Notes: a model not told the origin generated them from the letters alone. Counted from the first letter of the stretch, positions 27,003-31,558 are shown. The stretch: 64,000 nucleotides of DNA from an uncultured Spirochaetota bacterium (GCA_963745235.1 CAVUXE010000044.1:98187-162186), one strand, 5' to 3'. Numbers and translations: made by a program.

Positions 27003-27641
27003 ATGCCCCCAAAGCATCCTTTCCTGCTGTATCTGAGGTCACGTCTGTCTGTCGCGCTCGCCGCGACGGGCGCGGCGCTGGTTGTCCTTTCTCTGGCCCT
27101 GTTGCGGGGACATTCGCTGATCCCCGTCGTCGTGATCGTCATCGTCTACGCCGCGGTCACCGGGTTTGTCTTCTTCTCCCGCAGTGGAGCCAGGGAGATT
27201 GTGCGGGAAGGCGATGAAGACCGGCTCGCCATCGTCCGCCGGAAGATCGCTCACTACGAGGGGCTGAGAGATCGCATCTCTGTCCTGCGGCTCGGGGATG
27301 AGCGGGTCAGCAAGGCAATCGAGTACTTCCTCCAGGAATCCGGCGCGTACCTGGAAAAGTGCAGAGAGCTCACGAGCTACTCCCCCCTTGCCAACGAGAG
27401 GATCGAACGGGTCCAGGAGATCTGCCAGGTCTTCCTGGGGGAGCGGGATGAGGAATCAACGGGCCGCCGCTACGGTGTCCCCGGCAGCCCGGAGGCACCC
27501 GCGGGAGATGCGGCGGAGGGATTTGCGCGGGACATCCTGGAGTGCGCGGGGGTCATCAAGGCGAGGACTGTGGAGGACCTGCTCGGCATGACCGACGAGG
27601 AACGCCTGGAAATCACAAAAGGACTGGAAGAAACGAAATGA
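27003..27641 (+). CDS. Hypothetical membrane protein (2 N-terminal TM helices + helical domain)
   Basis: Two hydrophobic segments then charged helical domain; ATGA coupling to next gene. Confidence 0.7.
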   Translation: MPPKHPFLLYLRSRLSVALAATGAALVVLSLALLRGHSLIPVVVIVIVYAAVTGFVFFSRSGAREIVREGDEDRLAIVRRKIAHYEGLRDRISVLRLGDERVSKAIEYFLQESGAYLEKCRELTSYSPLANERIERVQEICQVFLGERDEESTGRRYGVPGSPEAPAGDAAEGFARDILECAGVIKARTVEDLLGMTDEERLEITKGLEETK

Positions 27642-29266
27642 GAAAGACCCTCATTGCATGCTTCGTTGCTCTCTGCGCGGCCGCGCTGGGCGCCTTTGGC
27701 GTTTCGGCGGACCTGAAATCCGTTGAGATGGACATCGTGGTGAGAACCGACGGGAAAGCGGACTTCTACGAGAGCCTGGACTGGCAGGCCACGGGCGGTT
27801 TGATGCACGGATTCTACTTCCAGGGGGCGGCTGTCAGGCCCGTGTTCAACAGGGAGCAGTGCTACGCGGACCTTGGCAACAAGAAGCGCGTTGGCCTGGA
27901 CATCACGGACCTCGGCTCGGGCAGGTACGACGTCGTGCTTGCCGGCGGCCAGGGGTTCACGGGCAGGGCCCTGTACTTCCTTGCGTACGGGGGAGACCTG
28001 GCCGGCGGGGGCCTGATCGGCTGGACAAAATCCGCGGACTTCGGGGAGCTTTTCTACTTCGATTGGGCTGCAGAGCAGTGGGATCAGCCCCTGGAGCACC
28101 GGACTGTCCGAATCGTTTTTCCCGTGATCGTGGCGGGAGAAAAGCTTGCATCGGGAGCGCTTGACAGCCTGGGCTTTCGAACCGAGCCGTTCGTGAACCA
28201 GGAGAACGGCATCGATGCGTTCGGAACAAAAGGAACTGACGGGAAGTACTACCTGACCCTGAGGTTCAACCAGGACGGCGTGGCTGCGCGCCAGACGCAG
28301 CGGCTCCAGTTCTACCTCAAGAGGGCCGCAATCCCCATGCAGGCGGGGATCCTCACTCAGTCGACATCAGGGGGACAGGGCGCACCAGCGGCGGGCAGCA
28401 CAGCGCCGGCTGCTCAGGCTGCATCCCGGCCGCAGCTCAGTCCGGAGGTCATGGGAGTTGTTTTCGGGATCGTTCTTATCGTCATCCTTCTTCTGTATGT
28501 CCTGAAGGCTCGCGGCTACGGAAGGACCATGGAGAAGGTGGAAGGAATCCGGTGGGCAGGGGACAACTGGATTCCTCCCAAGCTGTCGGCGGCACCTACC
28601 AGGTCAAGGGCAAGATCGCGAAGGACCTGCACCCCGTGGAGGTCGCGCTGCTCCTTGAAATGCCGCTGCAGAAGGTGGTGGCCATCATGCTGGAAGGCCT
28701 CAAGCGCCAGGGCATCATCGAGGTGGTGAAGGAGGACCCTCTCCAGATAAAGATCCTGACCGCGCGAAAGGCGGAGCACGAATACGAGGAGCTGTTCCTG
28801 CAGTCCTTCGACACCGCGGCGCTGGTGCTCTCAGGCCTGCTGGCCGATTTCTTCGAGAAGGTCCTGGCAAAGCTGCAGGAGAAGATCTGGGACTGCGACA
28901 TCGATGCGACAAGGGATTACTACCGCAAGAAACTGGAGCAGAGGGAGGAGACCGAGCAGGACCGGGTGGAGCCCTACTACTGGTACTGGTCCTCCTACCG
29001 CTGGATCTTCTGGAACACGGCGGTCTACTCGCACGTGCACCTGCCCCACGACTTTTCCGCGGGCTACCAGACCTTCATGGCCTCCGCGTCCTGCTTCAAG
29101 GGATGCTTCGCCCCGCCCCAGGCTGACCACGGGCGGCGTGGGAGCCTGCTACTCCGCGTGCCACAACGCGTGCCACTCCGCGTGCCACCATGCATGCCAC
29201 TCCGCATGTCATTCGGCGTGCCACTCCGCATGCCATTCGGCCTGCGTGTCGGGGGGCGCGCATTGA
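27638..29266 (+). CDS. DUF2207-like membrane protein with C-terminal (ACHS)n Cys/His repeat tail (two apparent frameshifts, near 28585 and 29115)
   Basis: Signal peptide [24 protein letters not shown]2207-like start ([17 protein letters not shown]), one TM helix, cytoplasmic domain ([17 protein letters not shown]), tail [41 protein letters not shown]. Confidence 0.65.
29144..29251 (+). repeat. Coding 12-bp tandem repeat x9 encoding A-C-(H/Y/V)-(S/N/H)
   Basis: GCN TGY CAY TCN units with synonymous third-position variation. Confidence 0.9.
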
Positions 29267-30661
29267 GGCCGCCGTCCGCAAAGCGGGCCGCGGCGCCCCG
29301 CAGCGTCGCTGACTCCCTGGGCTGGGTGGATCGAGTTCTTCCGCGAAGCAGGGGATCACATCTTTGCCCGAGAGGAAGACGACGTGATCATTCTCCCGCC
29401 GAACCAGGTCTACAAGGCCAACGCAACGGGCATCGCCATCGTGCGGCACATGCTCGCGGGCGGCAGCGTCCGCACCATTCCCGGGATCGAGCAGGAGGAG
29501 AGGGCGCGCCAGGTGGCGGAGTTCGCATTCCGTCTTCGCGCGTTGTATCTCGCGGAGCCTGTCGACCTGCCCCCCTTGGAAACCGTTCCCTACTCTTTTC
29601 AGTTCACCCGGCTCCCGATTCTCGGAGAGATCGCTGTCACGTGGCGGTGCAACAACGCGTGTCGTTTCTGCTATGCCGGCTGCGGGGCAGAAACCAGGGC
29701 AGGCACGCCTCGCGCTGTTTCAGGGGCTGACGGCGTGGAGATGAGCCTCCGCGACGTGAAGCGCATTCTCCAGATCTTTCGGGATGACGCGCGGATTCCC
29801 TTCTTCTCCTTCACGGGCGGAGAGCCGCTTCTGAGACCCGACCTGGAGGAAATGATACGCCATGCTCGCCGGCTCGGCCTTCAGGTGAATCTGGTGACCA
29901 ACGGAACGCTCGCGGACCATTCGCGAGCCGAGAGCCTTTTCCGGGCCGGCCTTCGCACCGCGCAGGTCAGCGTGGAGAGCCCGGACGAGCAGGTCCATGA
30001 CCGGCTCGACGCGACGACCGGGATCCTGGCGCGGCACCCTGGAAGGGATCCGAGCCATGGCAGGCGCGGGAATCTCTGTCCAGACGAATACCACCGTGAC
30101 GGCGCTCACGACCGCGGATGCGTTCAGAATGCCGGCGTTTCTCAGGAGCCTCGGGGTTGCAAGGTTCGCGATGAACCTCTATATCCCCGGGCGGCAACGG
30201 CGCCATGGCAGGACAAGACGAGCTTTTCCTCCCCTATCCCGGGCCGGGGCTATCATCGACAGCGTGCGCGCGGCCGCCCGGCGCGAGGGCCTGGCGTTCT
30301 ACTGGTACTCGCCCATTCCGCACTGCCACTACAACACCATCGCGCGCGGGCTGGGGAACAAGTCCTGCGCCGCCATGGATGGCCTCCTGTCCGTCTCTCC
30401 GGCGGGCGACGTGCTCCCCTGCTCCTCGTATCCGAGCCCATGGGAAACCTCCTCCAGACGGAGTTCCGCGAGATCTGGTTTTCCGACCGGGCGCAATTCT
30501 TCAAACACAAGAGGTATGCGCCTTCGGAATGCGAGGGATGCGAAAGCTTCACCGCCTGCCAGGCGGCCTGCCCGCTGTACTGGCAGCAGGCGGGCACGGC
30601 GGAGATCAGAAATGGGCATCGGCCGGCCGCGTGCGCCGCATTGCGAGGAGAGAAGAAAGAA
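29263..30661 (+). CDS. Radical SAM/SPASM enzyme with N-terminal PqqD/RRE-like domain (several apparent frameshifts)
   Basis: [27 protein letters not shown]-x12-G-x4-C ([19 protein letters not shown]) and C-x2-C-x5-C-x3-C ([14 protein letters not shown]); TTG start overlaps previous TGA. Confidence 0.85.
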
Positions 30662-31558
30662 ATGGAAATGCGTTTCGTCATTCCCCGGGTTGCCTTGCCA
30701 GCCCGGCTCGTCATTTTCGCCGGCTTCGCGGCTCTGGGATTTGGCCTCCAGGTCCTTCTGCCCGGCGGGCCCGGATTCATCCTCGGGACGGTCGTCATGG
30801 TTCCCGGGCTTCTCTTCGTGTCGGCCCGGAGCTTCCGCAACAAGCCCATGGACATCGACAAGGAGGACTGGCAGGCGGCATCCGTTCGAGAGTTCGACCG
30901 GATCAAGAGCAATCTGCAGCTCACCCGGCAGAAGCGCTTCTCAGTGATCTACCGCCCGGGGTTTGGCTGGTTCATGGCCGTGGTCCTTGCCGTCGCAAGC
31001 GCGGTGCTCGCCATGAGCAGTCACCCTTTTGCGGCGCTGGTGGGCTTCGACGCCATGGTGCTCCTTGTTCCTTTCCTGCTGACCGGGAATGTGAAGCTCT
31101 GGACTCCGCAGGAGCTCGCCTTTCGCATGCGCGTTTTCGACCCCATCCTTTCCACCGAACAGGCGGAGGGCGGTGACATTGTCATCACCCCTTACCTGAG
31201 GCTGGACAAGGACAAGGAGGGGCATGAGATTCCTGAAGACATCAGGCTCATGGTGGAGCCGCGCAGGAAGCCCGCTGATTTCCTCGGCGTGCAGCTCCAG
31301 GTCGCGGTGAACAAGGGCCCCAACGGGAATGTCCCGTACATGTACGCGGTGTTTCTCTGCCGCGGGAAGGGGGACTCTTTCCGGAAGGTCAGCGCCTGGA
31401 GCTTCGAGGACTTTGTGAAGGAACCGGGCGGGGACAAGGAATACGGCTACGTGGTGGTCCGGCAGAAGACCTCGGGAACGGGGTATCACACGACGGACGC
31501 CGACGTCCGACGCCTTTACGAGATGGTGAGGAAAAGACTGTCGACCATGAACGGCTGA
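30662..31558 (+). CDS. Hypothetical 4-TM membrane protein with soluble C-terminal domain
   Basis: GAGGAG RBS before ATG 30662; two hydrophobic hairpins; assembled in frame with SPASM end. Confidence 0.65.
   Translation: MEMRFVIPRVALPARLVIFAGFAALGFGLQVLLPGGPGFILGTVVMVPGLLFVSARSFRNKPMDIDKEDWQAASVREFDRIKSNLQLTRQKRFSVIYRPGFGWFMAVVLAVASAVLAMSSHPFAALVGFDAMVLLVPFLLTGNVKLWTPQELAFRMRVFDPILSTEQAEGGDIVITPYLRLDKDKEGHEIPEDIRLMVEPRRKPADFLGVQLQVAVNKGPNGNVPYMYAVFLCRGKGDSFRKVSAWSFEDFVKEPGGDKEYGYVVVRQKTSGTGYHTTDADVRRLYEMVRKRLSTMNG

Follow-up and report, generated by a model that had tools for sequence, protein, structure and literature searches.

What does a radical S-adenosylmethionine (SAM) enzyme do next to a membrane protein that ends in a regular cysteine/histidine repeat? 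The question is raised by four consecutive plus-strand genes, which we call G1 to G4, in a 64,000-nucleotide stretch of DNA (the window) from an uncultured Spirochaetota bacterium (GCA_963745235.1, CAVUXE010000044.1:98187-162186). G2 (27638-29266) encodes a DUF2207-like single-pass membrane protein whose C-terminal tail (29144-29263) ends (ACHS)4 ACVSGGAH, and G3 (29263-30646) encodes a radical SAM/SPASM enzyme with an N-terminal domain that resembles the recognition element (RRE) of enzymes for peptides that are made by ribosomes and modified after translation (RiPPs). An earlier note on this DNA took the tail to be the substrate of G3, with the two other genes encoding membrane partners. That reading is supported in part: the linkage of tail and enzyme, the RRE-like domain and the membrane topology agree with it, but its single promoter for the four genes and its G1 partner lack support, and the novelty of the repeat was put too high. 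Our comparative analysis suggests that G2, G3 and G4 probably constitute a maturation module, in which G3 would modify the G2 tail unit by unit, most likely by thioethers.

The tail is as the earlier note had read it, with nine cysteines at exact i,i+4 spacing and nine histidines, in a gene that ends at 29266. All ten relatives that were fetched have the gene order G1-G2-G3-G4, each with an intact G2 (∼541-580 a.a.) and a matching tail, in frame in every case. A comparison of these ten tails, which are of equal length, gives 889 synonymous and 45 non-synonymous codon differences (summed over 45 pairs of kin, which are not independent of each other), so the selection is on the protein and not on a DNA repeat. 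By this codon comparison, the conservation of the tail is more than chance.

We scanned one genome per species with a DNA pattern for the tail (ACH[S/D..]ACH[S/D..]ACVSG) and found it in at least 118 stretches, from at least 118 species genomes. The matches listed include a cultured isolate, Desulfobulbus alkaliphilus DSM 24258 (L064), and metagenome-assembled genomes (MAGs) of Thor- and Promethearchaeota; the module is spread over more than 20 bacterial phylum labels and the Asgard archaea. No match was found in 2.9 million viral contigs. The tail-locus counts given below rest on 115 loci from the matches listed, with L067, L071 and L090 omitted (the expression used to extract the tail open reading frame, ORF, gave none for these). 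In 104 of these loci there are seven to nine in-register units before a terminal ACV. Position 1 of the unit is Ala in 95%, position 2 is the Cys that defines the unit, position 3 is His in 97% (and otherwise mostly the Tyr of the first unit) and position 4 is Ser in 81%, Asp in 12% and Asn in 4%. The tail terminus is ACVSGG[A/S/G/F][H/R]. Two places ahead of the first Cys there is again frequently an Asp, Asn, Ser or Gly; [S/D/N]-A-C-H is therefore an equally valid way to write the unit. In divergent tails the modules are shorter, such as (ACHS)2ACV or (ACHS)3ACV, with one or two residues between them.

Using the cytoplasmic part of G2 as query we collected 98 proteins, distributed over Spirochaetia, Ozemobacteraceae, Proteobacteria, Anaerolineales, Stahlbacteria and Asgard archaea. 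The Cys repeat is present in 79 of them; the remaining 19 are truncated at a contig end, frameshifted or, in one case, degenerate, and there is no clearly intact tail-less homologue among the 98. Closer to the window, a 251-a.a. piece of G3 is present in 20 out of 20 genomes of the same genus, in 23 out of 24 of the family and in two out of three genomes of one further family of the order; it is absent from 13 genomes of six other families. The sequencing runs that contain the stretch are labelled as soil, peat, sediment or wetland.

Is the tail tied to G3 beyond these close relatives? Hidden Markov models (HMMs) of G1, G3 and G4, built from spirochaete relatives, were run on 8-kb blocks around the 115 tail loci. 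G3 is in the same block at 104 loci: it is directly downstream of the tail gene and on the same strand in 96 (72 with full flank and 24 cut by the block end), upstream and divergent in six (Asgard archaea) and elsewhere in the block in two. G3 is not in the block at eight loci despite at least 1500 nt of downstream sequence, and at three more with a short flank. Five of the eight blocks were checked, and each of these genomes has one G3 orthologue (E-values from 1e-85 to 1e-128), which is adjacent to the tail gene beyond the block in two genomes, nearby in one and elsewhere in two. A further one of the eight, L026, is in the same Myxococcales MAG as L033; the G2 paralogues of these two loci have tails that are nearly identical, and G3 adjoins only that of L033.

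The reverse test started from G3, which was found (E ≤ 1e-50) in 14 out of 301 sampled Spirochaetota genomes. The cytoplasmic part of G2 (E ≤ 1e-8) was found in nine of the 301, all of them among the 14 G3 carriers and with the two genes adjoining. In three of the other five carriers the gene directly upstream of G3 is a divergent G2 of 1023-1052 a.a. that has a Cys/His tail, and in the last two a contig end intervenes, such that a tail protein is next to G3 in 12 out of 12 Spirochaetota genomes with readable flanks. With these queries neither gene was found in the remaining 287 genomes. The co-occurrence of the tail with this radical SAM clade, which the earlier note had named as a check on its proposal, therefore holds in both directions (115 tail loci; 301 Spirochaetota genomes). 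Pairwise identity in G3 is correlated with that in the G2 cytoplasmic part (r = 0.77, 703 pairs), and in a quick tree of 53 G3 sequences the phylum labels are intermingled, with, for example, Myxococcota and Pseudomonadota rows inside a spirochaete clade; this pattern would fit, without proving it, a transfer of the module as a whole.

The assignment of G3 as a radical SAM/SPASM enzyme is confirmed by Pfam matches of the window pieces (Radical_SAM, E 3.8e-21; SPASM, E 5.2e-4) and of an intact relative (Radical_SAM PF04055, E 7.3e-28; SPASM PF13186, E 1.1e-8); intact relatives are ∼459 a.a. long. In the window the CX3CX2C radical SAM cluster motif, CNNACRFC, is at 29648-29671 and the C-terminal SPASM part, with a CX2CX5CX3C motif, is at 30437-30601 (TIGR04085, E 2.4e-5; PF13186, E 5.2e-4). 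Among 53 homologues the Cys residues of the cluster motif (C129, C133 and C136) are invariant, and so are seven further ones (C356, C370, C388, C425, C428, C434 and C438), the same number of auxiliary Cys as in thioether enzymes.

The N-terminal 115 a.a. of G3 match PqqD (PF05402) in 38 out of 53 members at E ≤ 10 (best E 3.2e-6), and families other than PqqD match single members only. The AlphaFold2 model of G3 (mean predicted local distance difference test score, pLDDT, 89.8; predicted template modelling score, pTM, 0.90) has three strands with flanking helices at residues 13-92. A Foldseek search of the model against the PDB lists SkfB first, then SuiB (448-457 aligned columns out of 459 residues) and then CteB, with BlsE, anSME, MoaA, PqqE and viperins at lower ranks; by this order the overall build of G3 resembles that of an RRE-bearing peptide maturase. 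Matches, model and fold together agree with the RRE-like domain that the earlier note had supposed, which would bind the substrate.

Judged by its scores against curated models, G3 is a member of no curated family. It scores 102.7 bits against TIGR04053 (cut-off 395), 87.5 against TIGR04340 (rSAM_ACGX; cut-off 400), 82.9 against StsB (cut-off 625) and 70.5 against HxsC4 (cut-off 500). Public annotation calls G3 a 'radical SAM protein' only, and PADLOC gives nothing more than generic pVip viperin models for it.

Can the enzyme reach the tail? G2 in the window matches DUF2207 (PF09972) with an E-value of 9.3e-6 (26.4 bits versus a cut-off of 24.4), and the relative at L012 scores 24.6 bits; both matches are marginal, as for a distant member of the family. 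The DUF2207 N-terminal domain, residues 26-187, is encoded at 27713-28198 and would be extracytoplasmic; a transmembrane (TM) helix predicted from hydropathy is at 28448-28504. The AlphaFold2 model of a G2 relative (pLDDT 81.3) has a confidently modelled beta-sandwich (23-227), the TM helix (272-305), a confidently modelled cytoplasmic domain of winged-helix plus helical build (336-462) and a disordered tail (487-538, pLDDT below 50). As the N-terminus has a signal-like segment and there is a single TM helix, the tail is placed in the cytoplasm. Hydropathy and model thus agree with the earlier note in putting it on the cytoplasmic end of a single-pass protein, and on this predicted topology the tail is within reach of a radical SAM enzyme.

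The DUF2207 connection of G2 is also seen in its neighbourhood. The neighbours of G2 in the Atlas are DUF2207 clusters (the Atlas has no name for the G2 family or for G4), some G2 homologues carry a precomputed PF27846 annotation, and DUF2207-type neighbours are kept at some loci: LemA is upstream in L032 and a TPM-domain protein is upstream in L056. In the latter (Candidatus Vecturithrix) the Cys/His tail continues into GGGGSSGGGGASGGW, a Gly/Ser tail that ends GGW, and this continuation links the Cys/His tail to ordinary DUF2207/TPM tails; the TPM-domain protein of the same locus ends in a similar Gly/Ser tail.

From these observations we infer the following mechanism. G2 would be an envelope protein with a beta-sandwich outside the cytoplasm, a single TM helix and a folded domain inside, and its disordered end would present 8-10 [Ser/Asp/Asn]-Ala-Cys-His units. 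G3, translationally coupled to G2, would be a RiPP-type maturase in which the RRE-like domain is combined with the radical SAM core and the SPASM domain, and would dock on the cytoplasmic end of G2 and modify the repeat units successively. The chemistry would most likely be thioether (Cys S-C) cross-linking, as by PapB, CteB and SkfB. Cross-linking of this kind would stiffen the flexible tail to a rigid element, studded with His, that is kept on the membrane protein, and G4, with its four predicted TM helices, would work with the matured G2 in the membrane. More tentatively, and with rather less than even confidence, we suggest that the product of this radical chemistry is a cross-linked Cys/His ladder, metal-binding or redox-active, which acts together with G4.

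The auxiliary Cys residues of G3 can be compared with those of CteB as given in PMC10177961: C370-x17-C388 of G3 parallels C344-x17-C362 of CteB, and C425-x2-C428-x5-C434-x3-C438 parallels C400/403/409/413. There are several points that weigh against the proposed maturation. G3 has no invariant Cys that would correspond to C432 of CteB, the last of its auxiliary-cluster ligands, and it has an additional upstream one, C356; the 3+4 ligand scheme of thioether enzymes is therefore not established in G3. Position 4 of the tail unit is occasionally Gly, Ala, His or Gln (115 loci), which leaves no one residue as an obligatory acceptor. The matches to PqqD stay below the Pfam gathering score (14.7 versus 23.4 bits for member 1). 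At two loci, L035 and L055, G2 and G3 are not adjacent. The best score of G3 against any curated family is with a tetrapyrrole enzyme, AhbD (122.7 bits, cut-off 500), and that with NirJ2, also a tetrapyrrole enzyme, is 97.8 bits; both are far under the cut-offs. Finally, a tail so rich in Cys and His could simply bind metal.

The last point leads to a different role for the tail, which may be an unmodified metal or Fe-S binder: G3 would then act elsewhere (on a different region of G2, or on a lipid or cofactor, with G2 only as its dock at the membrane) or would build a cluster on the tail. The nine Cys and nine His within 40 tail residues suit a metal site, several relatives of G3 by score are cofactor enzymes (AhbD, NirJ and MoaA), and ORF clustering found no protease and no exporter or transporter that is conserved in the loci. 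We nevertheless regard this as rather unlikely, considering that the RRE-like domain and the whole-length fold matches to peptide maturases fit a peptide substrate, that the strict register, invariant Ala and fixed unit number exceed what simple metal binding needs, and that the tail is never without G3 where this can be tested. On the same clustering, the locus lacks the marks of a RiPP in the strict sense (a short precursor, leader removal and export genes), the target being the tail of a protein of ∼500-1050 a.a.

The scores with tetrapyrrole enzymes also bear on a reading of the tail as heme-binding. CX3CH is a variant heme-binding motif, and every C-H-S-A-C-H stretch reads CX3CH, so the overlapping C-x3-C-H units might be variant heme-c sites to which G3 attaches tetrapyrroles in the cytoplasm. 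The top NCBIfam scores of G3 are indeed those with AhbD, NirJ2 and AhbC (89.9 bits), with MoaA at 85.5, but those with AhbD, NirJ2 and AhbC are a quarter or less of the cut-offs, and none of the cut-offs of the AhbD, NirJ, AhbC and MoaA models (500, 500-650 and 284-325) is reached. The fold search puts peptide maturases first, the tail is predicted to be cytoplasmic whereas the known route of cytochrome c maturation is extracytoplasmic, and three-Cys modules such as (ACHS)2ACV pair unevenly. We consider heme attachment highly improbable. The earlier note had named a grouping of G3 with NirJ/Ahb or MoaA, found without the tail, as one outcome that would speak against it; what we found is a G3 far under the AhbD, NirJ and MoaA cut-offs and never without a tail protein where the flanks are readable.

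If the tail is modified by G3, as we propose, is the product a thioether? Triceptide, epimerase and formylglycine chemistries are all known for radical SAM/SPASM enzymes, and G3 could act by epimerisation, by conversion of Cys to formylglycine or by C-C cross-links at His (a triceptide-type cyclophane on H-S-A). In line with this, the His (97%) and Ala (95%) of the unit are as invariant as the Cys, and the best fold matches include SuiB, a C-C cross-linker, and anSME; a precedent for a chemistry other than thioethers that acts repeat by repeat, TvgB, is described in PMC9062424. However, Cys is the defining residue of the unit and has a strict spacing, the thioether enzymes SkfB and CteB also head the fold list, and the target motif of anSME is absent from the tail. 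A non-thioether chemistry therefore appears unlikely to us, though it is the alternative we take most seriously.

Which other genes belong to the module? Clustering of ORFs across the loci gives only three widely shared clusters: G2 (110 loci), G3 (101 loci) and G4 (71 loci). G4 (30662-31558, plus strand) encodes a protein of 298 a.a. that has two TM hairpins and, at its C-terminus, a conserved soluble domain. G4 comes after G3 in 63 out of 66 loci with enough flank, and its family is closed, with 666 representative clusters (E ≤ 1e-3). By this gene-order evidence G4 is a conserved third member of the module. G1 (27003-27641, plus strand) is an intact ORF for a 212-a.a. protein that starts with a TM hairpin and is soluble in its C-terminal part, and Spirochaetota-type loci (17 of them) are the only ones with a G1-like protein upstream of G2; on the same kind of evidence G1 is a lineage-specific accessory outside the conserved core. 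The two membrane partners of the earlier note are thus reduced to one, G4. Neither G1 nor G4 has a Pfam, NCBIfam or PADLOC family, and PADLOC has no model that matches G2 either.

The place of G1, directly upstream of G2, is taken by a different, conserved soluble protein of ∼130 a.a., without a Pfam family, in 16 loci of Asgard, Aminicenantes and WOR-3 genomes (including L022, L050, L054, L079, L083, L088, L095, L107, L110 and L114). In four divergent spirochaete loci (L144, L145, L146 and L149) a G2 of 916-1052 a.a., with (ACHS)3ACV modules ending VSSF, is followed by G3 and then, in place of G4, by a protein of 421-504 a.a. and a TM protein of 160-178 a.a. with a zinc ribbon; Pfam gives zinc-ribbon hints only for the downstream genes of these loci. 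Three of the four (L144-L146) have an AIR-synthase-related (SelD/ThiL-like) gene upstream.

The four genes are tightly packed. G1 and G2 overlap in an ATGA (ATG 27638-27640, TGA 27639-27641) and G2 and G3 in a TTGA (TTG 29263-29265, the likely start of G3; TGA 29264-29266), both as the earlier note described, and across the loci the start of G3 often overlaps or abuts the stop of G2. The note had also supposed a single shared promoter; a sigma-70 scan of 26700-31800 found no site.

Is this copy of the locus functional at all? A DNA alignment with three close relatives reveals seven single-base indels in the window, near 28586/7, 29124-6, 29332/3, 30007/8, 30189/90, 30236/7 and 30434/5. The first two split G2, which would otherwise have ∼541-551 a.a., over three frames, and the others (those near 29333, 30007/8, 30189/90, 30236/7 and 30434/5) leave G3 in several frames; the TTG at 29263 joins the radical SAM frame only after the extra base near 29333 is removed. 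We compared the region 27000-31600 with Logan contigs from four soil or peat metagenomes of four studies, which are 95-99% alike. The contigs compensate every indel (28586 +A, 29126 -1, 29333 -1, 30007 -1, 30189 -1, 30236 +T and 30435 +T), and each compensating change is present in two to four of the four runs; the indels are also missing from the ten intact relatives. As these contigs possibly come from other strains, the compensating changes alone are no proof of an artefact. When the window is compared with L012, the non-synonymous/synonymous ratio of codon differences is 0.63 for G2 and 0.51 for G3, and among intact relatives it is 0.51-0.60 and 0.48-0.55, respectively, which indicates no relaxed selection in the broken copy. 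Since the indels are absent from the other contigs and relatives and the ratios match those of intact relatives, the seven indels are, from the alignments, most likely assembly (consensus) errors and not biology.

It is quite unlikely that the cluster is instead decaying into pseudogenes in this genome. The seven indels do fall within ∼1.85 kb with G1 and G4 intact on either side, and the contigs that lack them may be of other strains; against decay, the codon-difference ratios are within the range of intact relatives, every indel is absent from the contigs of two to four runs, and the tail of the window copy is letter-perfect. A further difference concerns the end of G3. Position 30644 is C in the window (CGA) and T in three of the four Logan runs (TGA, the stop of G3), and the window copy is stop-free in all frames between G3 and G4, so that with CGA G3 continues in frame into G4 (ORF 29384-31558). 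The CGA is either a base error or the mark of a strain with a read-through fusion. In two public gene calls, P0016 (937 a.a.) and P0021 (749 a.a.), G2 and G3 are fused, with the tail region read in another frame; these fusions are probably frameshift artefacts like those of the window copy. Elsewhere in the window a CYTH ORF (1758-2864) and a CHAD ORF (665-2413), both within 665-2864 on the minus strand, overlap in different frames; a further indel may have split what was a single CYTH-CHAD gene. The G+C content drops from ∼0.63 to 0.54-0.58 across the last 14 kb (50000-64000).

Radical SAM/SPASM maturases have so far been studied almost wholly as makers of small secreted peptides, and here G3 is tied to a large membrane protein's tail, with carriers in very different lineages (at least 118 species genomes). 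If the proposed maturation is true, G2 would become the first integral membrane protein with a radical SAM maturase, and the module would offer a first functional handle on the DUF2207/LemA/TPM envelope proteins. A modified tail would extend RiPP chemistry to the building of membrane protein domains, with [S/D/N]-A-C-H as a new repeat substrate and a testable entry to DUF2207 function. The cultured carrier, D. alkaliphilus DSM 24258, makes such testing practical.

How does the module compare with known systems? A literature search (supplementary files were not part of it) found no paper on a G2-G3-G4 system or on a radical SAM enzyme with DUF2207, and the papers that mention DUF2207 are not on this system. 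To our knowledge ordinary DUF2207 proteins, among them those next to LemA and TPM proteins, have Gly/Ser-rich tails and no radical SAM partner (the only such tail seen here is that of L056); they share the N-terminal domain family with G2. In QhpD/QhpC, a radical SAM/SPASM enzyme cross-links Cys in a protein subunit that stays functional and is not a secreted peptide; unlike G2, QhpC is a small soluble subunit without a repeat.

The repeat itself is of a kind known from curation, and has more precedent than the earlier note implied when it set the repeat apart from His-Xaa-Ser, SCIFF and Cys-every-fifth precursors. The nearest known kind, targets of radical SAM enzymes with Cys at every fourth residue, is in NCBIfam as Cxxx-repeat families (TIGR04114, TIGR04117 Syntroph_Cxxx and TIGR04118 AC3_0185, with the maturase TIGR04115). 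By their scores, the tail and G3 are not members, the tail having a weak resemblance to the targets: tails score 15.4, 16.7, 7.3 and 12.6 bits against TIGR04117 (cut-off 50) and at best 8.5 against TIGR04118 (cut-off 35) and 7 against TIGR04114 (cut-off 20), and TIGR04115 has no match at the G3 locus of three genomes (G023, G006 and G346), its best score elsewhere in them being 50.7 bits (cut-off 350). In contrast to those targets, the repeat here is the tail of a ∼550-a.a. membrane protein, with Ala and His invariant. Our literature search found no experimental paper on these NCBIfam families.

PapB/freyrasin, CteB/thermocellin and SkfB have a build of RRE, radical SAM core and SPASM domain that G3 resembles, at 15-20% sequence identity between G3 and the fold-matched maturases; their substrates are small secreted peptides, unlike the G2 tail. 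In a series of CX3D motifs PapB forms six thioethers between Cys and Asp, with the Cys of the substrate bound to an auxiliary cluster (PMC10177961). For StsB-type and other sactipeptide models G3 is far under the cut-offs. TvgB of the poly-cyclopropylglycine system, according to PMC9062424, modifies every unit of a four-residue TVGG repeat, and so resembles G3 in that a radical SAM/SPASM enzyme handles a four-residue repeat unit by unit, as we propose for the tail; it differs in the TVGG repeat, in the C-C chemistry at Val, in a free peptide substrate (TvgA) and in a cluster with an oxidase and transporters. In the HXS antiphage system (PMC13128918), HxsB and HxsC mature the repeat-bearing protein HxsA. 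Like G2 in our proposal, HxsA is a protein with short His-containing repeats, is served by dedicated radical SAM enzymes and works at the envelope; unlike in our module, the repeat is HxS, there are two radical SAM enzymes, and the effector is cleaved and periplasmic. PADLOC assigns no defence family to our module beyond the generic viperin-type matches of G3. Set beside all of these systems, what is new here is an uncurated radical SAM clade, a strict [S/D/N]-A-C-H unit, a proposed substrate that is fused to a DUF2207 membrane protein, and a dedicated partner with four TM helices.

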